This document shows, one piece after another, positions 27,430 to 64,000 of a stretch of DNA of 64,000 nt (position 1 is the first letter of the stretch; each line of letters begins with the position of its first letter). The stretch lies in contig OZ024743.1 in the NCBI GenBank assembly GCA_964016885.1, positions 111,662,001 through 111,726,000 on the forward strand. The letters run 5' to 3'. Position numbers and translations under genes: made by a program. The notes beneath the pieces were generated by a model. That model was given only the letters and a program-made list of their open reading frames with translations. It was not told the DNA's origin and searched no databases. This DNA comes from Eledone cirrhosa (taxonomy: Eukaryota).

Positions 27430-27531
27430 GAGAAGAAAGAAGTATACTGCGTGGTTGCACATGGGTTACATATAAAAAAATTACTCCCTCGTCAGTGATT
27501 TGCCAACCATCATTGATATTTCATCGCATTA

Positions 27532-27713
27532 TGGATTGGCAGTATCGGTAGAAGGTCGGACGCCATGCTTTCAAGCATAGGGACGTCCCTTTACGATCTG
27601 AGTTCAAATCCCGCCGAGGTTGACTTTGCCTTTCTATCCTTACGGGGTCGATAAAATAAAGTACCAGTAATATACTGAGTAATTGCTGGCCTTGTGCCTA
27701 AAGTAGAAACAAT

Positions 27714-27716
<3 letters not shown>
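27532..27716 (+). mobile_element. SINE family 1 copy
   Basis: Near-identical to 32426-32612. Confidence 0.9.
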
Positions 27717-27768: not shown

Positions 27769-27957
27769 CCCCATGTATGCACTAAATGGCGGACGTATTA
27801 GAGTTTGGGTAGCTTCACTCAGGTATTTATCTAGCTGTGGAGGTGACATTGTTGAGATAATTGATAATTGTGAAAGTATAAAGCATAGCCAACTTTCAGC
27901 TTATTGTACATACAGACGGGAATTTTTCTAGTCTCATTTCACGAAGTAGACAATACA

Positions 27958-28146
27958 TAATTGTTTCTACTGTAGGCACAAGGCCAGCAATTACTCAGTA
28001 CATTACTGGTACTTTATTTTATCGACCCCGTAAGGATGAAAGGCAAAGTTAACCTCGGCGGGATTTGATCTCAGATTGTAAAGGGACGTAACTATGCTAG
28101 AAAGCATGGCGTCCAACCCTCTACCGATACTGCCAATTCACTGCCA
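27958..28146 (-). mobile_element. SINE family 1 copy with 16-bp TSD
   Basis: GTAGACAATACATAAT at 27946-27961 and 28148-28163. Confidence 0.93.
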
Positions 28147-28783: not shown

Positions 28784-30005
28784 TGGGCAGTAGAGTAATA
28801 GGTGCAATATTAGTCGTTGTGAGTGTGGTGGTAGTGGTGAGGTAATGATGCTGGTGGCGATAGTGATTTTGATGACTGTGGTGCTGAATCCTGATTTGAC
28901 TGGTAGTGATGTGGATGGTGTTGGGGGTGGATTTATGGTGGCTGTGGTGCTTGTGGTACTTGTGGTACTAGCAATGATGAGGAGGAGGTTAAAGACGATA
29001 GTGGACGTGGTGGTGGTGGTGGAGGTAGTGCTGGTGCTGTTGGTGGTGGAGGTGGTGCTGTTGCTGTCGCTGGTGGTGGTGGTGCTGGTGGTGGTGGTGC
29101 TGGTGCTGGTGATGCTGGTGCTGGTGTTGGTGGTGTTGGTGGTGTTGGTGGTGTTGGTGTTGGTGGTGCTGGTGTTGATGTTGGTGGTGCTGGTGTTAGT
29201 GCTGGTGTTGGTGATGTTGGTGTTGGTGGTGCTGGTGTTGGTGTTGGTGGTGCTGGTGCTGGAGATGCTGGGGCTGGCGGTGCTGGTGGTGCTGGTGTTG
29301 GTGGTGCTGGTGTTGGTGGTGCTGGTGTTGGTGTTGGTGGTGCTGGTGCTGGAGATGCTGGGGCTGGCGGTGCTGGTGGTGCTGGTGTTGGTGGTGCTGG
29401 TGTTGGTGGTGGTGGTGCTGGTGCTGGAGATACTGGTGCTGGTGTTGCTGGTACTGGTGCTGGTGGTGCTGGTGCTGGTGTTGCTGGTGGTGGTGCTGGT
29501 GATGCTGGTGATGCTGGTGCTGGCGGTGCTGGTGGTGCTGGTGTTGGTGTTGCTGGTGGTGATGCTGGTGATGCTGGTGATGCTGGTGCTGGCGGTGCTG
29601 GTGGTGCTGGTGGTGGCGATGCTGGTGTTGGTAGTGCTGGTGTTGGTGTTGGTGTTGGCAGTGCTGGTGGTGGCGGTGCTGGAGGTGGTGGTGGTGGTGC
29701 TGGTGGTGGCGGTGCTGGTGTTGGTGGTGGCGGTGCTGGTGTTTGTGGTGGTGGTGGTGGTGGCGGTGCTGGTGCTGGTGATGCTGGTGCTGGTACGGGT
29801 ACTGGTGGTGGCGGCAGTGGCGGTGGTGGTCGTGCTGCTGCTGGTGCTGGTGGTGGTGCTGATGGTGGTGGTGGTGGTGGTGGAAATAATGGAGGTGATA
29901 TTGTTGGTGGTGATGGTGTTGTAGATGATTTTTACGATGAAGGCGATGTTGCCGATGAAGATGAACATGACGAAAATATTGATGATGATAGTGATGCTGG
30001 TCATG
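28615..30005. repeat. Complex trinucleotide array: (AGC)n, (AGT)n, then degenerate (GGT/GCT/GTT)n
   Basis: Directly visible; explains the poly-Thr/Ser and poly-Val/Leu ORFs. Confidence 0.92.
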
Positions 30006-32134: not shown

Positions 32135-32677
32135 TATATTTGAAAAAAAGGAAAATAATGACTTCACTTGTAGTGTTAAAATATTTTTGATTTAATGTTA
32201 TAATATTATAATATTATGAGTTGGTAGATCCAGTAAGTTCTTTGTTAACTTCGGTGGGAAGAATTTTAGAGGTTCCTGGTTAACTTGGGTTTGGAGAACT
32301 TTCTCACAATCGTCTGTCTGTGGCGATTGTCAAACTGAGATCAGGTTGAACCCAAGTTAACGAGGAATTTCTAAAATTCTTCCCACTGAAGTTAACAAAG
32401 AACTTACTGGATCTACCAACTCATATGGATTGGCAGTATCGGTGGAGGGTCGGACGCCATGCTTTCCAGCAACGTTACGTCCCTTTACGATCTGAGTTCA
32501 AATCCCGCCGAGGTTGACTTTGCCTTTCATCCTTACGGGGTCGATAAAATAAAGTACCAGTAATGAACTGGGTAATTGCTGGCCTTGTGCCTAAAGTAGA
32601 AACAATTATTATAATATCATAACATTATATCAAAACTTTTTTAACACAACAATTGAAGTCATTATTTTCCTATTTTT

Positions 32678-32684
<7 letters not shown>
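32135..32684. repeat. Fold-back element (~155 bp imperfect arms) with its right arm split by a SINE
   Basis: 32135-32291 is complementary to 32350-32425 plus 32607-32684. Confidence 0.85.
32426..32612 (+). mobile_element. SINE family 1 copy
   Basis: Full body and tail ggccttgtgcctaaagtagaaacaattatt. Confidence 0.92.
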
Positions 32685-37533: not shown

Positions 37534-37588
37534 CATGTTATATATATTTCAGTGACAGTCCTTATTGGCTGTGACCTCATCAGGCCGT
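37534..37588 (-). ncRNA. Minimal hammerhead of the 52290 family; core intact, stem I decayed
   Basis: CTGATGA-GGTCACAGCC-AATAA-GGACTGTCACT-GAAA-TATATA-TA. Confidence 0.6.
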
Positions 37589-37700
37589 AAGAATTAAGGC
37601 AGGAAAACAAATGTAGTAATGGGTTCTACCCTGTTAATTCATCGATATGTCGAGCTCCTGGGGGTTTTGCGTTAGTCCTGAAAGGAACTGGAATCATACG

Positions 37701-39265: not shown

Positions 39266-40499
39266 AACTTAACTCACTTTCAGATACTTATCCTCCATAA
39301 ACTCTTATTCTTCACTTACCTTAAATTATCCTCTTTACAGACTTCTCTTTCTGATTTACTTTCATTTTTAACTTTATTTTTAATTTTATTTTTATTTTTA
39401 CTTCACATCCACCAGTAACTCCACCAACCTACTGTTCGATTCACTTACCTAATATCTTCACATTCCACATTTTACTTCCCCATTTGTTTTCACTACCTGA
39501 CACCAAATGTCAATTGCGTTTTCCACTTCAGATATATTCTGTTGTTTCGCAGCCGATTTTATATTTCTACTCATTTATTCATACGACTGGTTTATAATCT
39601 GTATCTATGCGTGTGAGTGTGCATATGTGCGTATACGTTCTGTATATGTATACGAACGCCTCCTTATGTGTGCGTGCGTACGTATATATATGTGTGTGTA
39701 TGTGTGTTTTTATATCTATGTTTTTTATATATCTCTGTTTTTTACATACTTATTTATACGTGTGTGTGTATGCGGGTGAATGTATGTGTATGTATATGTG
39801 TATATGTATGCGTGTGTATGGGTGTGTGTATATATGTATTTATATATGTATAGTCGCGTACGTACGTGTGATTAGATATACATGTGGCGAAATATATATG
39901 TATACGTGCCTCGTGTGTATGTATGCACGCATGCATGCGCTTTTGTCTGTACGTATTTGTGTGTATAAATATTTATATATATATATGTGTGTGTGTACGT
40001 GCGTACCTATGTTTGTTTTCTTTTTTTTAGTGTTAATTGGTTACTTTCTCTTTGATTTAAAATGTTTTTTTCATTCTTATATATTGTTTCATGTTTATAC
40101 ATATATCGAGAATGACACTACTTTTTACTATTACACTCGCTTCCCTCTTTATTTTCCGCATATAAGTGACCAAGCGTGTGTGTATTTAATACCTGTATAT
40201 GGATGCGTGTTAACCATATTATCTTACACGTTCTTTTTCAACTCATATTATATACGTATTTGTGGTCACATATACAGAAATATACTTGCCCTCATATATG
40301 TACTTATGCACAGAGTTTCACCATAAACATGCATTTGTACATACACACATAGGTACATTTGTGAGTGTATATACATACACATATCCTAACTATATTTCCT
40401 TATTTTTTTTATATATCTCTTGCATTACTTTTATTTATATATTTTTTGTCCGTTAAACTCTTGCGTTTCTTGAGGAGACTTTTCAAATATTTATCGTAT

Positions 40500-41539
40500 T
40501 GCTATCGTCACCAACGTATACCTTCCTGCCAGATTGTTGAACGTATATACTTAGCTTATGCATATTAATGGCTGAGTAGCCCAATTTGCATATCGAGTGG
40601 GTTAATCGGCCGAAAACGATAAACGGAAAAAATGAAACCAAATATCATTTCCCACTCTTAGTACGGCTGTTACTTAAATATAAGTATGTACACGTACATA
40701 CATATATGTATACAGACATACAGTAGTATGTATATATATATATATATACATGCACACATATATATATGTACGTATGGATTCACCGAACATTTATTATAAT
40801 AAAGGTATAAGGTATACGTTGCTGACGATAGCTAATAAGCTTGAAACTAGTACAGCGTTCCTTTGTCAGTGTTGAACAAACGAGCAACGATGGTTGCTAG
40901 ACACTACGGCTTAATACGGGATGTTTGTTTACAAACACACCGAGCATTATAATAAATGTTCGGTGAATCCATACGTACATATATATATATATATGTGTGC
41001 ATGTATGTATATATGTATACATACTACTGAATGTCTGTATACATATATGTATGTACGTGTAAATACTTATATTTAAGTAACAGGCGTACTAAGAGTGGGA
41101 AATAAAATTTCGTTTTATTTTTTCCGTTTATCGTTTTCGGTGCACCCGGCCGATTAACCCACTCGATATGCACATTGGTCTACTCAGCCATTAATATGCA
41201 TAAGGTAAGTATATACGTTCAACAATCTGGCAGGGGGGTTGCTGACAATAGCTAATAAGCTTGAAACTAGTACAGCGTTCCTTTGTCAGTGTTGAACAAA
41301 CGAGCAGCGATGGTTGCTAGACACTACGGCTTAATACGTGATGTTTGTTTACAAACACACTGAGCATTATAATAAATGTTTGGTGAATTCATACGTGCAT
41401 ATATATATGTGTGCATGTATGTATATATATATACACACTACTGTACGTCTGTATACATATATGTATGTACGTATCCATACTTATATTTAAGTAACACCCG
41501 TACTAAGAGTGGGAAATGAAATTTCGTTTCATTTTTTCC

Positions 41540-41545
<6 letters not shown>
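40500..41545 (+). mobile_element. Non-coding retrozyme-like / PLE pseudo-LTR array: inverted partial unit plus tandem 420-bp units, each starting with an HHR
   Basis: 40821.. repeats at 41241..; 40500-40800 is the reverse complement of ~40946-41255; ends in (TA)n. Confidence 0.85.
40816..40858 (+). ncRNA. Minimal type I hammerhead (dimer type)
   Basis: ACGTTG-CTGACGA-T-AGCT-AATA-AGCT-T-GAAAC-TA-GT-A-CAGCGT; GUA site; second copy at 41237-41278 has G8>A. Confidence 0.75.
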
Positions 41546-42732: not shown

Positions 42733-42735
<3 letters not shown>

Positions 42736-42922
42736 TTGTTTCTACGTTAGGCACAAGGCCAGCAATAACCAGTGCATTACTGGTACTTTATTTTATCGAC
42801 CCCGTAAGGATGAAAGGCAAAGTTAACCTCGGCGGGATTTGAACTCACAATGGCAAGGGCCGTAACTCTATACGTCAAAGCATGGCGTCCGACCCTCTAC
42901 CAATACTGCCAATCCACCGCCC
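42733..42922 (-). mobile_element. SINE family 1 copy
   Basis: Full-length match; flanks share tatatattaat. Confidence 0.9.
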
Positions 42923-43038
42923 TTATATATATTAATATGTAAACACAGTAAACCCGTGTCTAAAATTACCAGGGTAGATTTCACCACAAATGTTATAATA
43001 CAGGGTATTGATATGAGTTATTAACTCTATATTTTATT

Positions 43039-43349: not shown

Positions 43350-43737
43350 CGACAATGATGGTGGTGGTGGTGGTGGTGGTGGTGGTGGTGGTGGGTGGCT
43401 GGTGTGTGTGTATGGGGGGGGGGGGCTGGTGTTGTGGTGGTGGAGCTGGTGGTGGTGGTGGCGGTGTTGTTGTTGTTGTTGTTGATGGTGGTGGAGTGTT
43501 GCTGCTAGTGTTCGTGGTTGTGTTGTTGGTTTTGTTGGAGGTGGTGGTGGTGCTGTAGATGGTGGTGGTGGTGTTGTTGGTGGTGGAGGTGGTGGTGGTG
43601 GTGGTGTTGTTGTTGTTGTTGGTGGTGGTAGTGGTGGTGGAGTGTTGCTGCTGATGTTCGTGGTTGTGTTGTTGGTTGTGTTGGAGGTGGTGGTGGTGCT
43701 GGAGCTGGTGGTGGTGGTGTTACTGGTGGTGTTGTTG

Positions 43738-43769
<32 letters not shown>

Positions 43770-43895
43770 GTTGTTGTTGTTGGTGGTGGTGGTAATGGTG
43801 GTGGAGTGTTGCTGCTGATTTTCGCGATTGTGTTGTTGGTTGTGTTGGAGGTGGTGGTGGTGCTGGAGCTGGTGGTGGTGGTGTTACTGGTGGTG

Positions 43896-43927
<32 letters not shown>

Positions 43928-44068
43928 GGTGGTGGTGTTGTTGTTGTTGGTGGTGGTGGTAATGGTGGTGGAGTGTTGCTGCTGATTTTCGCGATTGTGT
44001 TGTTGGTTGTGTTGGAGGTGGTGGTGGTGCTGGAGCTGGTGGTGGTGGTGTTACTGGTGGTGTTGTTG

Positions 44069-44100
<32 letters not shown>

Positions 44101-45735
44101 GGTGTTGTTGTTGTTGGTGGTGGTGGTAGTGGTGGTGGAGTGTTGCTGCTGATGTTCGTGGTTGTGTTGTTGGTTGTGTTGGAGTTGGTGGTGGTGCTGC
44201 CGCTGTGGTGGTGGTGTTACTGGTGGTGTTGTTGGTGGTGGTGGAAGTGGTGGTGTTGTTGTTGTTGGTGGTGGTAGTGGTGGTGGAGCGTTGCTGCTGA
44301 TGTTGGTGGTTGTGTTGGTGGTTGTGTTGGAGGCGGTGCTGGTGGTGGTCTTGTTGGAGGTGGTGCTGGTGGTGGTGCTGGTTGTGGTGGTGTTACTGGT
44401 GGTGTTGGTGGTGGTGGTGGTGGTAGTGGTGTTGTTGTTGGTGGTAGTAGTGGTGGTGGAGTGTTGCTGCTGATGTTGGTGGCTGTGTTGTTGGGGTTGG
44501 AGGTGGTGGTGGTGGTGCTAGTGCTGATAGTGGTGGTGGAGTGTTGCTGCAGGTGTTGGTGGTGAGTTGTTGGTGTTGGTGTCGGTGGTGGTGGTTTTGC
44601 TGGAGGTGGTGGTGCTGGTGTTGGTGGTGTTGTTAGTGTTGGTGGTGTTGATGGTGCTGGTGGTGGTAGTGGTGGTGGTGTTGCTGGTGTTGGTGCTTGT
44701 GTTGTTGTTGGTAGTGGTGGTGGTGGTGGTTGTGGTGGTGGGAGAAGCAATGGTGGTGCGTGGTGGTGGTGGTGGTGGTGGTGGTGGAGGTGGTGATGTT
44801 GCTGGTGGTGAGAGGTGGTGGTTGTGGTTGTGGTGTTGTTGTTGGTGTTGTTGTTGGTGGTGGTGGTGTTACTGGTGCTGGTGATGGTGCTGGTGCTGGT
44901 GATGGCGGTGGTGCTCTTGATGGTGGTGGTGTTTCTGGTGCTGGTAGTGGTGGTAGTAGTGGTGGTGCTGCTGGTGGTGGGCTGGTGCTTGTGGTGTTGG
45001 TGTTGTTGGTAGAGGGATGATTGTGGTGGTAGTGGTAGTATTGGTGGCTTTGGTAAAAGGGTAATGGTGTAGTTGTTGTTGTTTGTGTTGGTGGTAGTAG
45101 TTGTAGTCGTGGTGGGGGATGGTAGTGTTGATAGTAGGGCGGTAGTAGTGCTGTTGCTGGTGGTGGTGGTGTTTGTAGTCGTGGTGGGAATGGCAGTGAT
45201 GATAGTAGGGGTGGTAGTAGTGCTGTTGCTGGTGGTGGTGGTGGTGTTGGGGATGACAGTGTTGATAGTAGTGGTGTTAGTGATGCTGTTATTGTGACTG
45301 TGTCTGTGGGCTTTGCAGCTCTTGTTTGCAGATGGTGTTGGTGAAGGTGGAGGTTTTGTTAACGGTGGCGACCGTGGTAGTGATGATGGTAGTGTTATTG
45401 TTATTGTTACTGTGTGTAGTGGTGGTGGGTGTGTGGCTGATGATTGTTGCACTGCTGATAGTGTTATTGTTGTTGTTCTTGTTGTTAGAAGTAGTGGCAT
45501 TGGTGATGCTGCTGCTGGTGCGGGTGTGGGTGATGGTATTATTATTTTTGGAGTCGAGGTGATGGTTGTGATGCTGGAAGTGGTGGTTCTTCCTGTCCTG
45601 GTGGTTTGATGATTTCGCTGGTTGAGGTGGCGATGTCGGTTGTTGTGGTGGGGGATGTTGATGATGGGCGCTTGTTGGGGGTACAGCACTGGTGTTGTTG
45701 TTGTTGGTTCTGGTGCTAGTGCTGGTGCTGGTAGA
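43350..45735. repeat. Degenerate (GGT/GTT)n array with a ~150-170 bp higher-order unit over 43487-44480
   Basis: ggtggtggagtgttgctgctga..ttcg..gttgtgttg recurs about seven times. Confidence 0.9.
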
Positions 45736-45836: not shown

Positions 45837-46025
45837 TAATTGTTTCTACGTTAGGCACAAGGCCAGCATTTCCCAGTGCATTACTGGTACTTTATTTTAT
45901 CGACCCCGTAAGGATGAAAGGCAAAGTCAACCTCGGCGGGATTTGAACTCAGATCGTAAAGGGACGTAACTATGCTGGAAAGCATGGCGACCGAGCCTCT
46001 ACCGATACTGCCAATCCACCACCCT
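45837..46025 (-). mobile_element. SINE family 1 copy with 15-bp TSD
   Basis: TGTAGATTAAATAAT at 45826-45840 and 46026-46040. Confidence 0.93.
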
Positions 46026-47812: not shown

Positions 47813-50032
47813 TGTTTGTGTCTTATGGCTGATTGAATGCGATGAAGAGTCGCTGTAATCATGAAACTTAATGTATTTTTAGACGGAACACTGTAAAATA
47901 TATCCATCCCATTGGTATAAATTGAATAATGAAACAAAATTACTTTATATTAGAAAAACCACTTGGGGACTGACACAATATATATCTCCGGAAACAGCAA
48001 TGCTTCTTATCAAGTAATCAAGTAACAGGGTCCCTTTCAATACGAGAAAAGACATGCGATACTCGGGGTTGTATTCCTACTTTCTTCAATGTAGCAATAT
48101 TTTATGTCAAACCTGATAATGCTATCATTTGGCAAACTAACTCATCGATTTTTGGAATGTAGGTTTAATATACGTTGAGAGGAATGAGCCTCACAATATT
48201 TCAAATGCCCATGATTGTGTCACACAATCATGCCTCTCATGACATGATGAGTAGTTAGAGCCCCTTTGCATTTTATATCTCGATTTTCGCTTTTGTTATT
48301 CGCTTTTATATTTTGTTTAAATATTTTATAAATATATCCTCGTTTTTAATCAGCACCAGCATGTTTCCAATAGTGTAATGTAAATAAGGTTTAGAAATTG
48401 TTTAAAATTTAATAAACTGTGTCTTTACAAAATAATTCCGTAGGCATTAAAGGGGAGAATGAAAGATTACTAAGGAAAAGAATCATATCTTATTTCAGCC
48501 TTTTCTGAATAAGACATTATCATATTAAAAATAAATGTGTTAAATGCTTTGTGATATACATAGTGAAGACATTAAATAATATTTTTTGGTTTGTTGTTTG
48601 TCTTTTAATCCAATAGCAAATTGAATGGAAAAAGTTGATAATATTATGAAGACAATTACTTGATTTGAATTTCAAACTGTAAGCCCACATGGTTAAGTCG
48701 ATTTCTACCCCATTCCCTTTATTAATACATTCTTCATGCAACGAAGATATCAAGTTATCTGACCATTTTGGCATGACATTCACCACATTAAAAGACAGAG
48801 AAAAGAAAATTAAACGGTACAGAACAATTCAACATTTTTTCTCAACATCATTTACATTGTCATCAGATTGTCAACATAGCTTTACATATGCAAATGAGTG
48901 TACATAATCATATTGTAGAAGAATTATGAGAAAATAAAACAAAACATATAACGAAAAATATTAATTCTTAACTTTAATATATGCAAATAATTTAATAGTA
49001 ATTCACGATATTAATCCCACAACAACGACAGGTCCAGTATAATATTAGTATCTTCATACTTGATACAAGCAAAGTATTTTCATTTGAAAGGGGAAATTAA
49101 ATGTTGTGGCATTGAAGCCTTTTTTCACAAGCCTCAATACGTAAAGGAAAGGGTGATTAAAATAACTTCAGATAGTATTTGCTTGTGTATTCAGATACCC
49201 AAGTTCACACTATCTTGATTTCATTTTACAAATCTCATATGCTATATATTTCAGGCAAAGGTCGATGTTTATTCTATCACATGTCAACTACAATAACCTT
49301 CTCCGAGAACTGAAATAAAAACATTGATTAACGTCAGTGTGCATTTATGACAGCATTTCAAACGCAAGCCAGCAGTAAATTACATCTTGCTCAGCAGAAC
49401 TTGACAATTAGATGAAAATGTTTTATTTTTGACCTTATGAAAACAAATTGTATTTAAGGGAATTTGTATAAATATCAGTAACATTGATTAAAGGGGTAGT
49501 GCCAGTCTACATTGATTCATTGAAACTAAATATACTCTACTTCTGCTTCATTTTTCCCTGATAAAAAATTCAGCAGCTCAAGATTTTAAAATATATTTTA
49601 AAGAAATGTAACATTATGTAAGTGATGGTAGAAACATTTTCAAATGCTAATGAAAAGTGAGTTGCAAATTCAGGATGCATCATATTTATCGTTTTATTTG
49701 GTGCACGTAATTTCAAATAATTAGCCTTAATGAATTTCATTTCCCCTGGTATACTTACATATTTTTCGAACTTTATATTGTGTAATGGTAGCATCAGATA
49801 TATGGTTAACATGCAATGAAGGAGGTTAACATTAACTTTTATTTGCAAATAGCTTGGCGCATGCATTTGAACACGGTCAGCCATGCTGAATTTACACGTC
49901 GGCTAAGTGTCTTCTAGCGTAACCTGAGATAGATGAAAATATTCTCAGTTATATTACATTACACGTAATCAACGTATATAAATATACACACACTCTCTCC
50001 ACGCACACACACACATATATATATATCTATAT

Positions 50033-50716
50033 AAATGGAAAAGAATGAAATGAAATTTCATTTCTCACTCTTAGTACGGCTGATACTTAAATATAAGTAT
50101 GTATACGTGCATACATATATGTATACAGACGTACAGTAGTATGTATATATATGCATACATGCACTCATATATATATGTACGTATGGGTTTACCGAACATT
50201 TATTATAATGTTCGGTTTGTTTGTAAACAAACAGCCCGAATCAAGCCGTACAGTGTTCGGCAACCATCGTTGCCCTTTTGTTCAACACTGACAAAGGAAC
50301 AATGAACTAGTTCCAAGCTTATTAGCTATCGTCATCACCGTATACCTTCCTGTCAGATGATTGAACGTTTGAAAGTATATACTTTCCTTATGCATATTAA
50401 CGGCTGAGCAGCCTAATTGCCATATCGAGTGAGTTAGTCGGCCGGGCGTACCGAAAACGATGAATGGAAAAGAATGCAATGAAATTTCATTTCTCACTGT
50501 TAGTACGGCTGATACTTAAATATAAGTGTGTATACGTACATACATATATGTATACATACGTACAGTATTATGTATATATATACATACATGCACACATATA
50601 TATATATGTACGTATGGGTTTACCGAACATTTATTATAATGTTCGGTTTGTTTGTAAGCAAACAGCCCGAATTAAGCCGTACAGTGTTCGGCAACCATCA
50701 TTGCCCTTTTGTTCAA
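50033..50716 (-). mobile_element. Second locus of the 420-bp HHR repeat family (~1.6 tandem units), HHR decayed
   Basis: 50035.. repeats at 50464..; homologous to 40500-41545; core reads ATGACGA..GGAA; flanked by (TA)n. Confidence 0.85.
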
Positions 50717-50836
50717 TATTATATATATATAGTGTTGATGTGTGTTTATTTTCATAATTCCACACGAGGTGTACTAGCCTGCTTTTAAATTCCCTTTCTG
50801 GCATATTTTAGCAGTGATTTGGTTTACCGTGCTTGA

Positions 50837-50917
50837 GCTCTACTGATGAACGGTTCCAACCGTGACTAACCCCACTGAAAAGTTTCGTGAAATAGTCTTT
50901 TTAAGACTATATAGAGC
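50837..50917 (+). ncRNA. Complete monomeric type I hammerhead ribozyme
   Basis: GCTCTA-CTGATGA-ACGG...TCGT-GAAA-TAGTCTT-TTT-AAGACTA-T-A-TAGAGC: 6-bp stem I, 8-bp stem III, intact core, AUA site. Confidence 0.8.
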
Positions 50918-51417
50918 ATTTGTAGTTTTTCCAAATTGAAAGATAAATATTTAACCTTAATTTTATTCTGAGTTAAGACTCTATTGGTTTTTTCCCTGGA
51001 TTTCACAAAATCTATGGATAAAATTTTTGTCTTGACTTTTTTGTTTTTAATTGAGTTTGAATTATTTTCCCATATCTTACGTTAAATAGTTTCTATCTTG
51101 ACGTTATAGTCACTTATATATTATGAAATACTGTTGGCTTCTTGCTCACATTAATTTCTCTATTTTCATTTATATATATAGGAAAAGGCTCAACCTGTTT
51201 CGACTACCCTAAGTATTGAGTACTCTGGTGTGTTATGGTCCATATGGTTCCTTACCCCACTTCCTTCATTATATATATATATATGAAAAAATGGCGGGCT
51301 GCGTGGTTGCAAATGGGTTACATATGAATAAAATTAATCCTTCATCAGTGATCTTCCAGCCTTTAAAGCGATGAAATACCAATGAAGGCGGGAAGATCAC
51401 TGATGAAGGACTCATTT

Positions 51418-51525
<108 letters not shown>

Positions 51526-51639
51526 TACTTGTCACTCGTTGGTTACTTATTCCTTATTCTATCTGTGTGAGTCCGGTCTATCTTATTACTTTAGTACATG
51601 TGTGACTCTATATGTCTCTCTATTGCCATTAGTTAATAA

Positions 51640-52148
51640 TAATTAGGAGGTTGCTGCTATTCCACTTGTATATTCTATTTAGTTTTCGTCGGACTTCGTT
51701 TATGTCTGCCGCTTTAATCATTTGCCGGAACATTGTGTCTGTTCTGTATTGGATGTAATTCTTATTTCAATTTTCTCCATTAATCTCCAATGTTCCATTC
51801 TGACATGTACTAATGAGATTTTCTCGGCAGTGTTCTTTAAATCTTTAGACTATGCTACGGTCCGTCTGACCTGTTTGTCATGTTTCTAACCCTACATTGT
51901 CCCTCTGTGCATCTTCTGTTATATATTACGTTCCTAGTTTTACTGTTAATCTGTAGGCTTAGACTGCACACTATATATGTTCTATCAGTGCAGAGGCTTT
52001 TCTGAAAAATGTACGTTCTGCTAATCAGGGCATCGATGGGAATACCTGTTTTCTCTACTATCTTAATATTTAATTTTAATTTCTCTAGAGCCCTTCTAAA
52101 TAGGTATGCTAGTTCGCCTCTGGGGGTATCATTGACAAACATTACAGT
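51640..52148 (-). pseudogene. Penelope-like element Zn-linker and GIY-YIG remnant (third lineage; same family as 62840-63130)
   Basis: VMFVNDTPRGELAYLFRRALEKLKLNIKIVEKTG..C..C..RNVIY..C/YDGQTDRS..RFKEH../DTMFRQMIKAADI..LNR..W. Confidence 0.8.
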
Positions 52149-52289
52149 CTGACACACACACACATACATATAGATATATTTCAGTTCCTCAGTGAAATAA
52201 CAACCCAACCAGGAACTGGGCATATCAGAGTATTGACAAAATTATACACCTCAACAACATATGTACTTGTCTATACCACACTAATTCGG

Positions 52290-52344
52290 ACTGCCTGAAG
52301 AGGTCACAGCCAAAGATGGCTGTCATTGAAATATATATAGCAGT
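52290..52344 (+). ncRNA. Minimal type I hammerhead (dimer type), all three stems present
   Basis: ACTGC-CTGAAGA-GGTCACAGCCA-AAGA-TGGCTGTCATT-GAAA-TATATA-TA-GCAGT, followed by AATAAA. Confidence 0.78.
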
Positions 52345-52389
52345 AATAAACGAAGCTAAATTTTAAACATTTGACTTTTTATTTAACTT

Positions 52390-52429
<40 letters not shown>

Positions 52430-52505
52430 CGAAGGAAATGTGGTAAAGAACCAGGTGGACCATAACGCACCAAAGTACTCAATACTTAGGGTAGTAGAGT
52501 GGGTA

Positions 52506-53457
52506 ATAGGAACAAGTAAGATCCCGACGGCTGAGCTCAAGCCGTTTCGACGGCTAATTCTGGACTGAATGAAAATTTATTCAGGTATTTAAATAGCCGA
52601 GCTTATCAAGGGGTAATTCCATATATGGTCAAAGAGATAATCACCAGGATTGGTCACATCACAAGTTAGTAGTAAATCTGTGATGGCAAATTGGTGGGGG
52701 AAGGGGTAGCTGAACCAGCCGGTAGGAGAAAAAGGGAGATGGGGTGGAGTAGACCCATTGATGCGTTGGTAGGGCCGGCTACAGCAGGGTGTGAGGTCAA
52801 AGAAGATACTGGGGAGGGGGATGGGGAGGAAGTCAAAACAGTAAGTAAAACAAAGAAGGGTAAAACTATAAAAAGTACTGAGAGAGAAAAGAAAAAATAA
52901 GCAGTCTCGTTACTAAGACTTAAGTCTCTCGCTATTGCTAGGCTAAAATAATACATAAATAAATAAATAAACAAATAAGTGAATATTCACTTATTTGTTT
53001 ATTTACTTATTTATGTATTTTTTTAGCCTAGCAATAGCGAGAGACTTAAGTCTTAGTAACCAGACTTTCTTTTTTTTGTTTCTCTCTCAGTACTTTTTAT
53101 AGTTTTACCCTTCTTGGTTTTACTTACCGTTTCGACTTACTCCCCATCCCCCTCCACAGTATCTGCTTTGACCTCACACCCAGCTGTAGCCGGCCCTACC
53201 AACGCATGAATGAGTCTACTCCACCCCCTCTCCCTTTTTCTCCTACCGGCAGGTTCAGCTACCCCTTCCCCCACCAATTTGCCATCACAGATTGACTACT
53301 AACTTGTGATGTTACCAATCCTGGTGATTATCTCTTTGACCATATATGGAATTACCCCTTGATAAGCTCGGCTATTTAAATACCTGCTTAAATTTTCATT
53401 CAGTCCAAAATTAGCCGTCGAAACGGCTTGAGCTCAGCCGTCGGGGTCTTACTTGTT

Positions 53458-53462
<5 letters not shown>
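52506..53462. repeat. Spacerless palindrome with ~479 bp arms and one U3-A8 hammerhead per arm
   Basis: Centre GTGAAT|ATTCAC at 52984/52985; arms differ by scattered substitutions; element runs 52428-53462 between (TA)n tracts. Confidence 0.95.
53354..53447 (+). ncRNA. Type I hammerhead, U3-A8 variant, GUC site
   Basis: ACCCC-TTGATAA-G-CT-CGGCTA...TAGCCG-T-C-GAAA-CGGCT-TGAGCTC-AGCCG-T-C-GGGGT; mirror copy at 52521-52614 (-); relative at 59178-59256. Confidence 0.75.
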
Positions 53463-53497
<35 letters not shown>

Positions 53498-53709
53498 TAT
53501 ATAAGGGATAACAAAATATCATTATAGGTAATCCAGTTAGAGGTTGTTAATACTTCTTATTATGGATAGTTTTAGCGTACGGGCACTGCTTATAGTGTTC
53601 AGCAATCTTTAAACACCTTTATCAGTCAAACAATTGTTAGACTCTAAATCAATCCCCTTTTTTGTACGTTTGACTACTTTTTCAATTTTATATAAATATA
53701 TATATATGC

Positions 53710-53784
<75 letters not shown>

Positions 53785-54723
53785 CTTGTCTCTAATATTT
53801 GACAAGTCTTCTCCCCTCAATGAAGAGAATTGTAAATCTTCCAATATTGGTTCATCCAATTTCTTGGAATGGTTAATGTATATTTTGGACTCCAGAACAT
53901 ATTTTTGAGGAACTCTATAAGTAAACCCAACTTATGCTTGTCGGTCTAGCCGATAACCCTCAAAAACAGATATTGGCTTAAATTTTAATATATTTTGCTG
54001 TTTCTCTGTGTAGATCATTTAATAATATATCTTATCCTTTCATTGAGATGTCTAAGTATTAGAGATAAGTAACGTCATATATATATATATGTTTATATAT
54101 ATATATCCTTTTGTATGTGAGTGTGTATATATATATTTCGTGTGATTACGTACGTATGTGGGTTTAATAAATTCCCTAGATGTCGTTCTATGGTTAGATA
54201 TATCTATGCCTTTTATATAAGCTGCAAATATGCCAATGTCATAATAAATGTGTATAAACATATATGTTGATCTCGTAATCACCAAAAATAACAGTTACTT
54301 TACGAAACCTATCAATATTATAATAACATCTTTCAAATGTCACTATAGTAATGGAATAAACTACACATAGTACAGGTAGACTATGTAATCGACATAGAAA
54401 CTTTGTCTTCAGTTTGTTTAATGTATTGATTGTCTATAATACACTATACTGACAAGCCATTTTTTTTCAGAACCATGCGCAGATTTTCGGGTTCAACGGC
54501 ACGGTCTCCCTGACCGTAATTAATAAATTAAAATAATCAGGAGGAACAGCTGCGAGATGTGTAGGAGCAATAACTTACATGTTTTCTATGAACACGTACA
54601 GAATATGATCTGACCAACACAGTGGATGCACCTCGCCTTATATTTAATTACATACCATTTCACCAGTTATCAGAAGAAGTAAACAATCTGTCAATTTCAT
54701 CCTGGTTATATGTAATATGTTAA

Positions 54724-54972
54724 GGAACGTAGCCTAGTGGGATGTGTGTTGGACTTATGATAGTAATCTTGTGGGTTCGATTCCTGGCCTGGATTGCGTG
54801 TTGTGTTCTTGAGCAAAACATTTCATTTCACATTGCTCCAGTATACTCCGCTGAAAATGAGTACCAGCAATAGCTGGGAGTTTAACCCTGTGATTGGCTG
54901 GCGTCCTGTCCAGTGGGGGGAGTCTTGTTCTCTCAGTAGCTTCACGCCATGAAACTTGGATAAGCACTGCCT
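54724..54972 (+). mobile_element. SINE family 2 copy
   Basis: TAGCCTAGTGG A-box, GGTTCGATTCC B-box; colinear with 27118-27398. Confidence 0.85.
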
Positions 54973-56239
54973 CAACGCGCTGCGTGCAGCGCACGAGTGT
55001 GTTCATGCATATGTAGTAATAACTTTTGGTACCAACTACAGACTTAATGTGTTGAATTTCAATAGGAACTGACATGTTTTTATATCATCAATCACTGATC
55101 AGATCATTTTCAATTCATCATTCTCTAAAATGGAACTTAACTTTATTTTCTCGTTACAAAGTATTTGTGTTTACCGTGTTTGTACCACAATTTCTGTATG
55201 TTGCTTACATTCAGAGTGCTGGTGTATATTGTACAAGAGAAAAAAAAAATGTTAATAATAATGTCATTAATGCTGTTTGCTTATGATTTAATGGAACCCT
55301 TGTTACTTTAGTTATCTCCGATTTAATAATATTCATATACGAACATACGATACGGTTTCTATAGCTTCATCTCGTATATGTATATATGATAATATATGAA
55401 TGTGAATCATTTAAAATTCAAAAGCGTCGTTTGTTTAACAAAGGTTCTATTAGGATGTATGTTCATACTTTATCATATATATTAAAAGGTTTGCATACTC
55501 ACTAATTTTAATTAAAATATGGTTCTATAGGCAATCCTTAACAAATATATATTCAGAAAGTTAAAAATGTAGCTAATAATGAGCAGATATCTTTTATAAT
55601 TTTGTAGGTTTCAATTCGGAAGCGTAGAAGAGCTATGTCATATTTCGTATTCAAATTCTTTAATTATTTGTTTGTATCCTGTTTATTAAATATGTTTCTG
55701 AGTTCAGGAAATTATACAGTAAATTACAGAAATTCAATTTCTATTCTCGGTAATGTCTTTAAAGTTAGATGTGTCTTTGTTGTGCGAATACCCAAAGAGA
55801 CGAAATCCCTATGGCAATGAAAATGTATAGTTATAACATGAATAATAAACATCACCTGTCAGTAGTGTCAGGGCATTCATCAAAGCAATTGAATAATAGA
55901 TATCTTCGTTTTCGAACACAGAAGAATGTTTTGTTTGATGGGGACGGTTATTTCGTATTTCTTATGAGATATGATCCTTCTTTAAAGACGGATAGTTTTT
56001 GCTTATTCACCTCAACGGAATCTAAATTTATTTAAAACTGCATCAATCTCTTTTTAGAATGTTCACATCGCTAAATATATTTACATCTCATTTTTCAGCT
56101 CAAGTAAATATATCAATATAAACAACCGCTATATATGTAATACTGTTTATCCTACTACACGTACAGTGCCGCCCTATAAGTAAATGACCGTTGTTATTTC
56201 TATACCACCAGATGGAATATATGTGTGCGTATATATATA

Positions 56240-56531
<292 letters not shown>

Positions 56532-56763
56532 ATGTATATTTTTTTTTCTTCTTTCTTTCTTTATTTCTTCTTTTTTCTCTTTGACGGGGAGGTAGTAGCA
56601 CATTACAAGCTTTCGCCCCCTCACCAGATGGTCATAAGTAGACCGAATAGCCAACACTTGAGGGCGACCGACTGAGTTAGAAGATGCTAGGTGGTGTCGT
56701 CCTCTTGTCTATGATTTTCAGCCCCATGGATTTTATCTGTTATATTTCTTTGTTATATTTCGA

Positions 56764-56828
56764 ATAGCTGATGTTATCACCAGATTCATACCGAACCCGG
56801 TCATTGAAATGATCATAGTATAATAAAC
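56764..56828 (+). ncRNA. Decayed minimal hammerhead
   Basis: ATAG-CTGATGT...GGTCATT-GAAA-TGATCA-TA-GTAT-AATAAA. Confidence 0.4.
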
Positions 56829-57014
56829 ATTTCAAGGATTTACACCAGTCCAGCCTCCTGTCATATTATTATAATAATTAACTCTGTACTCGCACCATCA
56901 ACTACACAAAAGAAGACGGGTGAGCTGCATTACGTTGAGTACTCTCCATAATATTACATCGAGATTGATCATATGGAATGACCAATTCAATCCATGGGTG
57001 AACCAACAAACCTA

Positions 57015-57071
<57 letters not shown>

Positions 57072-57079
<8 letters not shown>

Positions 57080-57168
57080 TAACCGATTAAAGTTTAAGCA
57101 AAGAATCTCTGCTTTCACCGGTAAAGGCTGCGATTCTTTGCTTAAACTTTAATCTGTTATTTTAATAA
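57072..57168. repeat. Hairpin with ~35-bp arms next to (TA)n
   Basis: tattaaaataaccgattaaagtttaagcaaagaatc / gattctttgcttaaactttaatctgttatttaata. Confidence 0.8.
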
Positions 57169-57263
57169 ATATTTGCTCTAGGGTTCTTATATATTTGATA
57201 TATATTTAGCCTTATCGACCACTCTTTCCATTTTAGTCCTCACATTTATTATTATATTATTAT

Positions 57264-57299
<36 letters not shown>

Positions 57300-57305
57300 T
57301 ATACT

Positions 57306-57349
57306 ATACATACAATTCATGTATGCATCGCTATTTCAGAGCACCAATC

Positions 57350-57413
<64 letters not shown>

Positions 57414-57890
57414 GATTGGTGCTCTGAAATAGCGATGCATACATGAATTGTATGTATTTTGCCGAAAAAAGAAGTAAGTGACATATTCACTACTTTAAAA
57501 ATGATAGCGCTAGGTCTTCAAAATGTTTTTAATTAAGCATACGGTATATTGCCAAATATACTATACATACATTCATGTATACATCGCTATTTCAGAGCAC
57601 CAGTCCTAATACCTAATTGTTGCTTGACCGGCAATCGCTCTGTATAATCAGCTTCTGATTATTACTGGAATTCTATAAGAATCTAGCCTCTATAATTTTT
57701 CTGCAAGGGCGGGGAGCACGTTGCTCTGAGGATCACCAACAGCATGCAACAGAATAATGTGTTAGCTTCTTTCCCTTCTTTTGCCGAAAAAAGAAGAAAG
57801 TGACATAGTCGCTACTTTAAAAATAATAGCGCAATGTCTTCAAAATGTTTTTAATTAAACATACGGTATATTGCCATACATTCATTTATA
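57306..57890. mobile_element. PLE-like arrangement: 48-bp inverted arms around (TA)n plus a ~322-bp direct repeat
   Basis: 57306-57353 vs 57409-57457; 57458-57555 repeats at 57780-57876. Confidence 0.7.
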
Positions 57891-57893
57891 TAT

Positions 57894-57954
<61 letters not shown>

Positions 57955-59159
57955 TATATACATTACCTTATTGAAAATAGATTCTGTCTTGCAATCCACA
58001 ATTTCTAAGAGATGGCTTTGGAGATTTTCCCTACCAGTTTTGTACATTTGTGGTCCCTGGCGAGTTACATAACAATATTATACATTGTAATTTCCCACAG
58101 TTGCAATTGCAAATTACCATTTCAACCTGTATAGTAACAAAGAAAAATTGCAATTCACATAGTTTTGTCTTTGTTGAATATTCTTTTCCTATTGTTTGTC
58201 ATGGTTATGTTATTAACCATAAGAACATGTTAGAATATACTTCAGATTGATTTGACGTTTATATTTAAAGGACATAAACAATGTTAGGAAGAATCAATCC
58301 TGTCGGAGCTTGTCCATTGACTGACAGTTGGCCCTCGGCCCAGATGTCACTATTTGTTGAGAATTGGCAGGAAATTATATCTCTGAGAGCATAACTGTTT
58401 ACTACTCATAGAGCTATGATATAAATTGCCTTCATGTAAACTTATAGAGTTGGATTCCTTACATCACAACTTGGTGTGTTATACTATCTTAATTGGTGTG
58501 TTATATAGCATAATTGTATACATCAAAGTAATGGTGGGGAATACATGAATGTATGTTATTATGTAAAGAACACTGGTTGTATAAAGCAATGAACAGACTT
58601 GTTCATGCAACTAATATAGATATTTTCTTTTTTTTTTGTATATATATGTATCTATATATAACTAACTGGAATGACTGCATTGATATTCAGCTGAAACTCA
58701 TCTTGTGAATTGTTATTTGCCTATATAAGGACTCTGGCAAGAGGATATACATAAATATAGATAATCAGTACCCCCACCCTAGTAATTTCTATATAGCATT
58801 GGCTGAAAACTCAATACCAGCTAAAAATATAGCAGCTGTTTTAGACTCTATTTTTTTTTATTATTTTTTATTATTTAAATTTTTCATATTATTGTTATTT
58901 TTATTTATTATCTATTATTTTTTTTATTTTTTAATAACTTTCCACTCTCAGATTCCTCCAGAATTCTTTTTTCGCCGGCTTTCTAACTAGCCTAATTTCT
59001 TCCACACTCCCTAGAATTTGTTGTATAGAATTCCCTTCCAAAGCTTGACCGGTTCCACCCACTCCCTCATTGTTCTACAGGCAATTTCAGCCACCACCAC
59101 CATGAAAGATTTAATTGTGTTTACAAGAAATTTTGACCAATCATTTTGACAACTACAAT

Positions 59160-59352
59160 CTTCCCATATAAGGAATTACCCCTTGAAATGTTCGGCTAAA
59201 AATCTAATTTAGTCTAGATATAGCCGTCGAAACGGCTTGAGCTCTGCCGTCGGGGTCATCAACATTTTCCTATTACACACTCTACTACCCTAGGTATGGA
59301 ATACTCTGGTGCGTTATGGTCCACCTGGTTCCTTACCACAAATCCTTCGTTA
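59160..59352 (+). mobile_element. Non-palindromic member of the 52428-53462 family with HHR (A9>U)
   Basis: ACCCC-TTGAAAT-GTTCGGCTA..TAGCCGTC-GAAACGGC..GCCGTC-GGGGT; ends at (TA)n; further terminal fragments at 51195-51270 and 10581-10620. Confidence 0.8.
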
Positions 59353-59584
59353 TATATATATACATATATATGTGTGTGCGTGCGTATGTATGTGTGCGTG
59401 GATCATGCATGTAAATTCACATGTCAGAGGAGCTGTCGATGAAGACTAGGGCTTCGATCGCCTTAATAGCATCCGAGACGATCGATATTGAAACAATTGT
59501 AATATACAAATAAAGTTTCTACACAAGCTGCAAATCTGACTTGTTTCATACATGGCATTCGTGCTAAGAGATGCGGCACGGTTT

Positions 59585-60346
59585 TTCTCTGAAGTCACAC
59601 ACAATTCTCTGTTTTGTGGCTTAGGTGATATAAATTAAAGTTTTGCCACCCGTCTCTTACTCAACTGGACAGGGTTTGGCTTATGTCAGATGCAGTGACC
59701 CCGGATGAATCAGCAGTATAGGTGGGAGGGGTCGGAACTGCCAGAGTCCATCTCAACAGCCGATGAAAATGGAGTTCTCTGCCCTTGGTTTGTCTTTTAT
59801 GTTTTTTATATAATTTTCTACGGTTTCTCTTTAAAAAATTGTTTTTCGTTTTGTTTAGTTTCCCTTCATTCTCTTATCCTCTCTTTGTTAATTTTCTTAA
59901 GTTTATCTACTGATGTGCCGAACGTGATTAACTCTTCTCCACCTCATTCCCCACTATTTATTGCAATGATTTACATTTTTAATACGGTATCTTACGTTCT
60001 TCACTTCCGTTTTTTTTCAATTTTTTCTTTGTTTCATTCAGGTCTTTCATGCTTTGAGAGGCACCAGACTGTGTTCCCTACATCACATAAAACTCTGTGT
60101 TTTGTAACTTAATTGCTATGAATAAATGTTTAGTCTATTCCCTCTTACTCCACTGGACAGCGTTTGGATTATCTCTGGCACTATGGCCCTAGATGGACCA
60201 GCAGTACCGTTGGTAAGGATCGAAACTCTCAAAGTTTATCTCAAAAGCCGCTTAACATGGAGTTCTGTGTCCTTCGTTTGTATTTATATTGTTTAAATCA
60301 TTTTTTAAGGTTTCCCCTTAAAAGAATTGGTTTCCGTTTTGTTTCC
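59585..60346 (+). repeat. Diverged direct repeat (~270 bp homologous blocks, ~490 bp period)
   Basis: ctcttactc(a/c)actggacag(g/c)gtttgg..cagcagta..atctcaa(c/a)agccg..atggagttct recurs. Confidence 0.75.
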
Positions 60347-61149: not shown

Positions 61150-61308
61150 ATATAAGCAAAAGGGATATTTAATTTGTTAATTTGTTGGTAATTCAACAAA
61201 TATATATGTTTATAACTGATTCAAAGCACTCGACAAGTTTTCTGGAGTATAATATCAATGATATTAATTAAATTAAATACCAACAAATTAAATATCCCTT
61301 TTGCTTAT
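61150..61308. repeat. Small fold-back element next to (TA)n
   Basis: tataagcaaaagggatatttaatttgtt / aacaaattaaatatcccttttgcttata. Confidence 0.8.
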
Positions 61309-62839: not shown

Positions 62840-63130
62840 ACATATGGGACCTGCTCCTTGTATAGGAGCAAATTTTGGAATAGAATAGAAAGAACTAGGA
62901 ATAAAGTGAATAGAATAAACTCATAGTATGATAGCAATACATACCAGAGTGTAATGTTCATCGATACAACCCCTAGAGGTGAATTAGCTTACAGATTTAG
63001 AAGGGCCCTAGATAAACATAAATTCAATATTAAGATAGTAGAAAGACCAGGTACCTCCATAAAAACACTTATTAGCAATACATACCCTTTTCAAAGACCT
63101 CCCTGTATAGATACGAAATGTATAATAGAA
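62840..63130 (+). pseudogene. Penelope-like element ORF remnant (post-RT linker)
   Basis: LYRSKFWNRIER..*YDSNTYQSVMFIDTTPRGELAYRFRRALDKHKFNIKIVERPG..YPF..C..KC; homologous to 51855-52148. Confidence 0.8.
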
Positions 63131-63365
63131 AACATGAATGGAACAGCAACATCACAACTTACAATTAAGGACAAAATGAAAACACACACACATAGAACAA
63201 ACAACCAACCAGTAACATGTAAATAAACAAATAAATAAACAAATATAAACACACACAGACACCCGGGTGTAACACATGGGCAAACTAAGCTCACAGCACA
63301 CACAAAAACAAGATGGCGTAGGACAGAACAAAGGAGAGGCACACAAACAAATAAAATAATCCCCA

Positions 63366-63408
63366 GTCACTGAAGAGGTCACAGAATGTGTGACGAAAGA
63401 ACTTTGAC
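63366..63408 (+). ncRNA. Minimal hammerhead downstream of the PLE remnant
   Basis: GTCA-CTGAAGA-G-GTCACA-GAATG-TGTGAC-GAAA-GAAC-TT-TGAC. Confidence 0.6.
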
Positions 63409-63859
63409 AATATATGAACAATCGTTTGGTTGTGGAACCAACCAACCAACCAACCGGAAATTTATGAATTCCTAAATTTATAAATTTATAAATTTAATTT
63501 ATAATAAATTGAAGTGAAGCACCTGGTGCGGGTGTTTCTTATTGGCAACATGACCCTCCCAAAGCATAACAATATATATATATATATATATATATATGTT
63601 CGTTTTTCCTTTTTGTTCAGTTATTTGCGACTCGGAAAAATCTTTTTCCTGGAGCTAATTTAGACTATTTTGAGTTTCTAACTCAAACATGCTTTTGATA
63701 TATAGGCCAGCAATTACCCAGCAAATATATATTTATATATATATATATATATAAAATGATTTCATTGTTGACATTTGACGCTGCAAAGTAACGAAAATAC
63801 AGTTCTTATTATGACTAAGGGTTTGTTTTTAAATGTTTCCGGGATATTAATCGTATTTC

Positions 63860-64000
63860 AGGGCGGTGGATTGGCAGTATCGGCATGTATCGCCATGCTT
63901 TGACGCATAGAGTTACGGCCATTGACATTCTGAGTTCAAATCCCGCCGAGGTTAACTTTGCCTTTCATCCTCGATGATAAAATAAAGTACCAGTAATGTA
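63860..64000 (+). mobile_element. SINE family 1 copy, truncated by the window end
   Basis: gggcggtggattggcagtatcgg..gagttcaaatcccgccgagg..ataaaataaagtaccag. Confidence 0.88.

Follow-up and report, generated by a model that had tools for sequence, protein, structure and literature searches.

A spacerless palindrome between two (TA)n runs

The 64-kb stretch analyzed here (the window) is AT-rich, microsatellite-dense eukaryotic DNA. Its self-alignment gives an inverted repeat of 957 bp at 52506-53462 with 94.8% self-identity, in agreement with the spacerless palindrome described in the first-pass annotation: the center lies between 52984 and 52985, the spacer is zero, and the innermost arm is perfect over 21 bp. 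Between the arms, of 479 and 478 nt, there are 22 substitutions (7 transitions and 15 transversions) and 2 indel events (3 gap columns). A 78-nt extension at 52428-52505 is unique to the left arm and is without an inverted partner. The features of the locus, named as parts of the putative element, are:

52395-52428, no strand: left (TA)n target run, 17 units
52428-52505, minus strand: 78-nt tail, the 3′ end of the element from end site B (52506) to end site A (52428), on one arm only
52506-52984, minus strand: left arm, the noncoding 3′ region of a 5′-truncated element; sense is the minus strand
52521-52614, minus strand: left type I hammerhead motif, with U3 at 52609, C17 at 52526, a C·A mismatch in stem I, and the extra loop II helix intact
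52964-53005, no strand: spacerless head-to-head junction, with perfect 21-bp arms around a self-complementary hexamer (52982-52987)
52985-53462, plus strand: right arm, an inverted copy of the left-arm region that stops at site B; sense is the plus strand
53354-53447, plus strand: right type I hammerhead motif, with U3-A8 and a predicted cut after C17 (53442)
53413-53428, plus strand: competing 6-bp hairpin between the stem II 3′ strand and the stem III 5′ strand, with G12-A14 in its tetraloop
53460-53503, no strand: right (TA)n run, 22 units

The outward direction of the two hammerhead motifs follows from the arms themselves, each of which is a sense copy of the end of the element.

Six family copies share one end

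The palindrome (52428-53462) is one of six family loci in the window, the others being:

58845-59351, plus strand: copy with tail and with hammerhead core UUGAAAU at 59183; its upstream score of 101 is reached by 0 of 288 random windows
56339-56531, no strand: copy with tail and short head-to-head arms (56417-56531), truncated inside stem II, with a 9-nt spacer in one arm and an inverted arm that stops at site B
51179-51270, no strand: inverted piece (internally deleted, ending at site B) joined to a tail-only sense piece, the two being non-overlapping
637-833, no strand: diverged copy with degenerate inverted arms, the inverted arm ending about 50 nt inside the 3′ end and not at site B
10582-10618, plus strand: solo 37-nt tail piece (33/37 identical) between two TA runs

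All six loci, with copy lengths of 37 to 557 nt, have the same 3′ end (site A), and the tail at 52428-52505 is identical to that of the 59-kb copy at 70 of 78 positions. Site A adjoins a clear TA run at five of the loci and a degenerate one at the 640 copy, while only 4.2% of unmasked window positions are equally near a TA run. An inverted piece is present at four of the six loci and absent from two, which supports the earlier description of a repeat family whose insertions frequently include an inverted arm that differs in length between loci. Site B, which lies 78 nt inside site A, is the terminus of the inverted arm at three of the four inverted loci, and three of the four have a 78-nt tail on one end only. 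The relatives noted previously at 56340 and 640, with the fixed end and shorter arms, are both recovered (arms 50/58 and 44/68 identical, respectively; 13 of 1,648 random adjacent windows score as well as the latter), and the copies at 51179-51270 and 10582-10618 add two more. The inverted piece at 51.2 kb, which matches at 15 of 17 positions (2 of 3,000 random windows score equally), takes in GAAA, a portion of stem III, and site B, whereas its sense piece is confined to the tail. For the 59-kb copy, a search for an inverted partner gave none (scores of 38 to 45; the 95th percentile of the null is 44.6).

Six-frame translation of the element gives no long open reading frame (ORF) and matches only the element's own copies, none of 10 full-length PLE-type proteins matches it by tblastn, and reverse transcriptase (RT) or GIY-YIG coding sequence is attached to none of the six copies. 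No tandem array of the element was found within the window. Short family motifs are absent from the consensus set of PMC8557442, save one chance 11-mer in unrelated sequence, as are motifs of the neighboring families; an exact 24-nt family motif has no match in prokaryotic genomes, as expected. A sigma-70 scan was also run, and is meaningless for eukaryotic DNA.

The hammerhead motif

In the right arm (plus strand), a 5-bp stem I (53354-58/53443-47) is followed by core UUGAUAA (53359-65) with a U3-A8 pair, by G10.1-C11.1, and then, across a 2x1 loop, by a 6-bp stem II helix with a 37-nt loop; GAAA follows with G12 at 53420, and a 6-bp stem III with a 7-nt loop leads to the GUC site with C17 at 53442. 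The left-arm motif (minus strand; N3 52609, C17 52526) differs by one C·A mismatch in stem I, and a strict descriptor scan therefore catches only one of the two arms. Both 52-kb arms have all elements of a type I core (N3-UGA-N7-N8-A9, GAAA, U16.1-H17, and a Watson-Crick 3-8 pair) as well as the three-helix architecture with G10.1-C11.1, at 5, 1+6, and 6 bp in the right arm and with the stem I mismatch in the left. The proposal of outward-reading GUC hammerheads with U3-A8 in each arm thus stands for the core and the 6-bp stem III, with the reservation of the left stem I. It applies less well to the 59-kb copy, where recurrence of U3 and A8 had been noted near 59178: both bases are present (N3 59183), but core UUGAAAU is without A9, having U at position 9, and stem III contains a U·U mismatch. 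Nor is fixation of U3-A8 in the family, as had been suggested, supported: only two of the six loci reach the core, one of them without A9, and the other four end short of it.

A descriptor scan of the window returned four hammerhead motifs, comprising the 52-kb U3-A8 motif and three with C3-G8 cores. Shuffled versions of the 64 kb gave a mean of 0.45 matches (40 shuffles), and a match as strong as the 52-kb hammerhead arose in 1 of the 40. The 19-nt GAAA/stem III motif occurs five times at ≤3 mismatches, compared with 0.00 expected. Rfam gave no match at gathering score over the whole window and no hammerhead family among 94 matches for 50000-60000 at E ≤ 10, a weak negative because the canonical-core motifs at 50843 and 52295 are equally missed; miRNA matches below the Rfam gathering score were set aside, their targets being AT-rich hairpins.

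Stems I, II, and III are identical at 31 of 32 positions between the 52- and 59-kb copies, and this near invariance leaves no covariation to be drawn from the two independent full motifs. Between the same copies, conservation of the tail (70/78, as above) and of the hammerhead outside loop II (53/57) exceeds that of the upstream sequence (229 of 296 aligned columns), with a Fisher p of 0.006 for hammerhead conservation vs upstream sequence. The predicted cut site at C17 is 98 nt from site A and 20 nt from site B.

The U3-A8 core is uncommon and already described, and it adds little as a ribozyme variant. A literal literature search for U3-A8 with hammerhead matched PMC4209133 alone, in which Cervera and de la Pena (2014) report about 1,300 such motifs in Penelope-like elements (PLEs) of Schistosoma mansoni; the earlier term "rare" was therefore too strong. 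U3-A8 is also reported in several natural hammerheads by Perreault et al. (2011), who cite in vitro activity (PMC3088659). The mildly unusual features of the 52-kb copy are its 6-bp stem III, its long loop II, and its 78-nt tail.

A probable Penelope-like element

We assign a probability of roughly 0.8 to the reading that the 52-kb locus is a single, now nonautonomous insertion derived from an endonuclease-bearing PLE, of which it retains the 3′ end (the pseudo-LTR region). We infer this identity from anatomy alone, with no linked ORF. The family has traits described for PLEs, including a fixed 3′ end with 5′-truncated copies, a head-to-head inverted copy, a one-sided tail, and a type I hammerhead near the 3′ end, and PLE anatomy would account together for the palindromic arrangement, the single fixed end, and the TA sequences on either side. 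The points that fit less well are the length of the tail (78 nt vs the usual 30 to 40 nt), the 6-bp stem III, and the lack of an extra base between positions 9 and 10.1. The element probably belongs to a TA-targeting clade such as Neptune; the family does target (TA)n, a trait common to several clades, and the CX2-5CxxC linker was seen only in an unlinked remnant at 26 kb and not in the family copies.

That remnant (25948-26870, minus strand), a sign of PLE activity within the window, is of the RT-CX2-5CxxC-GIY-YIG type, is frameshifted and 5′-truncated, and matches the C-terminal part of proteins of roughly 750 to 950 aa. Its relatives contain GIY-YIG in 7 of 7 scanned, RVT_1 in 6 of 7, and the CX2-5CxxC linker in 10 of 10; a full HMMER search gave 4,006 matches and word-index protein searches gave none. 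It has no DNA or protein link to the hammerhead family. A second palindrome in the window, at 10018-10428, has 99% identical arms, each with an outward-reading C3-G8 hammerhead-like motif, a 137-nt one-sided tail, and TA ends, and the architecture is therefore independent of U3-A8.

Craig et al. (2021) describe an inverted, 5′-truncated copy at the PLE 5′ end, a 30- to 40-bp tail often on one end, hammerheads near PLE 3′ ends, and (TA)n targets (PMC8557442), and Arkhipova et al. (2013) describe inverted repeats that meet head to head, the junction being palindromic (PMC3846280). The 52-kb family resembles the endonuclease-bearing PLEs of these reports (Penelope/Poseidon, Neptune, Nematis, Hydra, and Naiad) in its head-to-head 5′-truncated copy, palindromic junction, one-end tail, 3′-near hammerhead, (TA)n target, and many short truncated copies, and differs from them in having no ORF in the copies seen and in the longer tail. 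Naiads, described as without canonical hammerheads, fit least.

As a ribozyme, the motif is closest in form to those of S. mansoni Cercyon Sm3/Sm4 as described in PMC4209133, being type I with a U3-A8 core beginning UUGA, a 4- to 5-bp stem I, a long stem II closed by G-C, a palindromic stem III, and pairs on opposite strands; such pairs are reported there at distances of 100 to 700 bp, the stem III regions being palindromic and in vitro activity low. It differs from Cercyon in its 6-bp stem III with a 7-nt loop (Cercyon has none), its 37-nt loop II, and the absence of an extra base after A9. Fig. S3 of the same paper places 54 of 56 metazoan representatives in the type with an extra base between 9 and 10.1 and a shorter stem III. 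The fungal and protist hammerheads with a large helix III in that paper are alike in having a stem III stable enough for monomer folding, although they apparently belong to endonuclease-less telomeric PLEs with C3-G8 cores, whereas the 52-kb copy sits in (TA)n. Poseidon PAc of Anolis carolinensis (PMC11167929) also has, downstream of its hammerhead, two end points between which a tail lies, and an AT-rich target; in contrast to the 52-kb copy, it has a C3-G8 core and an ORF start inside the ribozyme, of which none is evident here. Non-LTR retrozymes (PMC7229834; bioRxiv 10.64898/2026.07.22.740005) are likewise noncoding, PLE-related, and equipped with type I hammerheads, but these are direct tandem repeats yielding circular RNA, whereas an inverted pair such as that at 52 kb cannot release unit-length RNA from one strand.

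A proposed route of integration

A plausible route begins with an RT/GIY-YIG protein of the element, supplied in trans, that would nick a (TA)n run on both strands. Reverse transcription of the element RNA would then be primed from either nick, in one case at site A and in the other at site B, these being 98 and 20 nt downstream of the ribozyme cut site, respectively. Both cDNAs would stop early in the U-rich upstream region and their ends would be joined end to end, here perhaps at the self-complementary hexamer, giving a head-to-head palindrome in which the A-to-B tail is one-sided. The hammerhead of the parent element most likely cuts tandem transcripts to size, at a slow rate and assisted by a protein or partner, and the 52-kb hammerhead would be a passenger, silenced by arm-to-arm pairing in any read-through transcript. 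Frangieh et al. (2024) report a PLE protein that nicks both strands and extends them, and two RT start sites that bound the tail; ribozyme cleavage requires this protein, the cleavage itself being dispensable for insertion in vitro (PMC11167929); where that paper describes the two start sites, it does not link them to inverted copies.

We lean, narrowly, toward this use of two cDNAs. The fixed site B and the non-overlapping arms at 51.2 kb favor two separately primed cDNAs over a fold-back, and because the inverted piece at 51.2 kb holds sequence absent from the sense piece, copy-back of one cDNA would be insufficient without a later deletion. Points that sit uneasily with it are the zero spacer at 52 kb, the 640 copy that does not end at site B, and the possibility of just such a later deletion at 51.2 kb.

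The principal alternative for the mechanism is self-priming, in which one nucleic acid strand loops onto itself through a short self-complementary stretch and copying then proceeds back to site B. This would account for the zero spacer and the perfect 21-bp center, as well as for the 2-nt spacer of the 10018 palindrome, and priming of this kind by the antisense strand has been suggested for PLE junction palindromes (Arkhipova et al. 2013; PMC3846280). It accounts less readily for the non-overlapping arms at 51.2 kb and the 9-nt spacer in one arm at 56.47 kb, and the fixed stop at site B would need an extra rule, which a second RT start site supplies (PMC11167929). We therefore consider self-priming rather unlikely here, and the fold-back insertion proposed in the first-pass annotation is probably the wrong mechanism, as arms end at a fixed internal site and those at 51.2 kb do not overlap.

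Under the two-cDNA route, the six copies and two sharp end sites translate into a countable prediction, namely that inverted copies should have one arm at site A and the other at site B, at any length. The value of the locus is as a clean record of PLE integration, the origin of tandem and inverted structures being listed as open in PMC8557442.

Is the hammerhead functional?

The motif could also be the remains of a dead hammerhead, in which an ancestral 8-nt core (CUGANGAH) lost G8 and C3 changed to U, leaving a family pattern of UUGA-N-A-N in which U3-A8 is fortuitous, a matter of register. The two cores that survive have 7 nt each, and the positions at which they disagree, 7 and 9, are the two free positions of the PLE consensus with one base missing; in the U3-A8 register the 59-kb copy is without A9. 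Published U3-A8 PLE cores are 8 nt, with both U3-A8 examples among the 56 representatives having the extra base (PMC4209133), and the competing hairpin and the isolated G10.1-C11.1 pair also point toward decay. Against this, the 52-kb core has every canonical position and a valid U3-A8 pair, 7-nt cores are present in 2 of the 56 representatives (PMC4209133), loss of one A from an A-run accounts for the 59-kb copy, the stems are all but one position identical between copies, and U3-A8 ribozymes are active in vitro (PMC3088659). On balance we find a dead hammerhead doubtful.

The competing structure has its origin in a heptamer present twice, once on the 3′ side of stem II and again on the 3′ side of stem III, and a rival hairpin able to trap GAAA in its loop is the consequence. 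This hairpin is in the minimum free energy (MFE) fold of both arms, with pair probabilities of 0.54 (right), 0.16 (left), and 0.07 (59-kb copy). The hammerhead fold, with the core forced open, has a share of the ensemble of about 1.5% in the right arm, 0.04% in the left, and 6% in the 59-kb copy, percentages that are lower bounds in kind because nearest-neighbor energies omit tertiary contacts. A compensatory change in the rival hairpin of the 56-kb copy is only apparent, both changes being CpG-type transitions. Pairing of the stem III palindrome between two copies is predicted at −32.1 kcal/mol, compared with −7.8 kcal/mol per monomer hairpin, in agreement with the use of dimers in other PLE ribozymes. 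Lunse et al. (2017) reportedly treats PLE hammerhead dimers and may already include such variants.

We put measurable cleavage of an RNA spanning 53345-53455 at slightly below even odds. A fuller reading, for a PLE family with a monomer-competent U3-A8 hammerhead and a built-in switch, in which the rival hairpin hides GAAA until a protein or partner RNA refolds it, and with TA-site insertions recording two cDNAs from two RT start sites on opposite nicks, seems improbable in its entirety. If the switch and two-cDNA reading were true, the head-to-head PLE structure, long without an explanation, would be connected to the two RT start sites described in vitro in 2024, in a form countable genome-wide. 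The long stem III with its rival hairpin offers a handy test of monomer cleavage by an animal PLE hammerhead.

Arm-to-arm pairing

Read-through RNA of the locus is computed to form 453 arm-to-arm pairs with an MFE of −839.7 kcal/mol, and the predicted fold pairs 91 of the 94 ribozyme bases with the other arm. Cleavage and long double-stranded RNA (dsRNA) would thus be mutually exclusive. The ribozyme is predicted to be clear of the opposite arm in transcripts beginning at 52640 or later; among eight transcript starts folded, none formed all three hammerhead stems in its MFE structure.

These pairs raise the question of whether this is a hairpin-RNA locus retained by the host, kept for long dsRNA that would feed ADAR or siRNA silencing of the family. 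Besides the extent and stability of the pairing, such a role has a parallel in transgenic Drosophila, where siRNAs map to inverted Penelope regions (Evgen'ev 2013; PMC3681739). The arms have 22 uncompensated substitutions along their length without A-to-G bias, and an ADAR imprint between the arms was sought and not seen (1 A/G and 2 G/A among the 22). Signs of a host gene are absent, with none of 78 stop-free stretches (≥55 aa; low-complexity stretches and 43.0-46.1 kb left out) matching Pfam across 30.2-64 kb. We regard host retention as very unlikely. Of the earlier suggestion that transcripts would form long dsRNA as ADAR substrates, the pairing holds in principle, but the arms have no A-to-G excess and the ribozyme would be buried. 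Transcribed palindromes, if any, would be a source of dsRNA, as already reported for Penelope.

Spacerless palindromes are a known artefact of long-read sequencing. The form of the locus would fit a fold-back read or an amplification chimera, as might the excess of arm transversions over transitions (15 to 7, vs 121 to 190 in LINE pairs; p = 0.012), although SINE-like pairs have the same excess (18 to 10; p = 1.0). The arms, however, differ by 22 substitutions and only 2 indel events, and the inverted arm stops at a site common to two other loci and then passes into unique flank; as already argued from the arm mismatches in the first-pass annotation, a sequencing or assembly artefact is extremely improbable. 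A foldback DNA transposon or MITE with long terminal inverted repeats, as the long inverted arms and TA flanks might suggest, is scarcely credible given the asymmetric ends (with the 78-nt tail) and lack of symmetrical fixed termini, arms whose length, up to 478 nt, varies on the inner side (with two of six copies having no inverted arm), and the hammerheads in the arms.

Neighboring elements in the window

Several other hammerhead-like motifs in the window have C3-G8 cores. The palindrome at 10018-10428, part of a region spanning 9881-10428, appears young; its motifs (N3 10232, plus strand; 10215, minus strand) combine a stem II of great length (fold z = −5.2) with a stem III of 2 bp and a palindromic tetraloop, and have two extra bases ahead of GAAA. 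A type I motif at 50837-50917 (plus strand), with the canonical C3-G8 core, has 6 bp in stem I and 8 bp in stem III, a UA site at 50911, and a fold z of −2.75; no further copy is present in the window. A separate family of PLE-type minimal hammerheads with C3-G8 cores is present at 52290-52344 (plus), 37536-37596 (minus), and 63366-63408 (plus), and the motif at 52295 ends at the TA run in which the 52-kb palindrome has its left end. Two related, decayed coding stretches, at 51858-52160 (minus) and 62927-63150 (plus), have no Pfam match and presumably resemble a PLE thumb and the start of a cysteine-rich endonuclease (Hydra- or Naiad-like); the 52295 hammerhead is opposite in strand to the 51858-52160 stretch, as expected of an inverted pLTR.

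A small TA-ended family at 51299-51420 and 27447-27531 includes a head-to-head palindrome (51328-51420) and has the first half of a hammerhead core without a downstream GAAA. Inverted structures with one end at a TA run are also seen at 32140-32680, 40497-41542, 50031-50716, 57075-57164, and 61155-61305, that at 32 kb being interrupted by a later 190-bp repeat. At 57300-57608, a 47-nt unit is present three times, and two perfect inverted copies face each other across a (TA)29 run.

An apparently intact two-ORF LINE occupies 15652-21289 (plus strand), with ORF1 of 642 aa and ORF2 of 1,150 aa containing endonuclease, RT, and zf-RVT (domains RVT_1, endonuclease, and zf-RVT at 17577-21029; 91 matches in the LINE ORF search), and older decayed relatives lie in tandem ahead of it at 12386-15432 and 8815-12387. 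ARAGORN gave no tRNA in the 64-kb window. A SINE-like repeat of about 190 bp, with no tRNA call, is present in at least nine copies in both orientations:

5610-5820, 24103-24311, 25072-25278, 27532-27716, 27954-28140, 32426-32622, 42733-42937, 45868-46018, 63844-64000, both strands: SINE-like copies

Long degenerate (TGG)n arrays at 29007-29883 and 43359-45250 give rise to low-complexity open frames.
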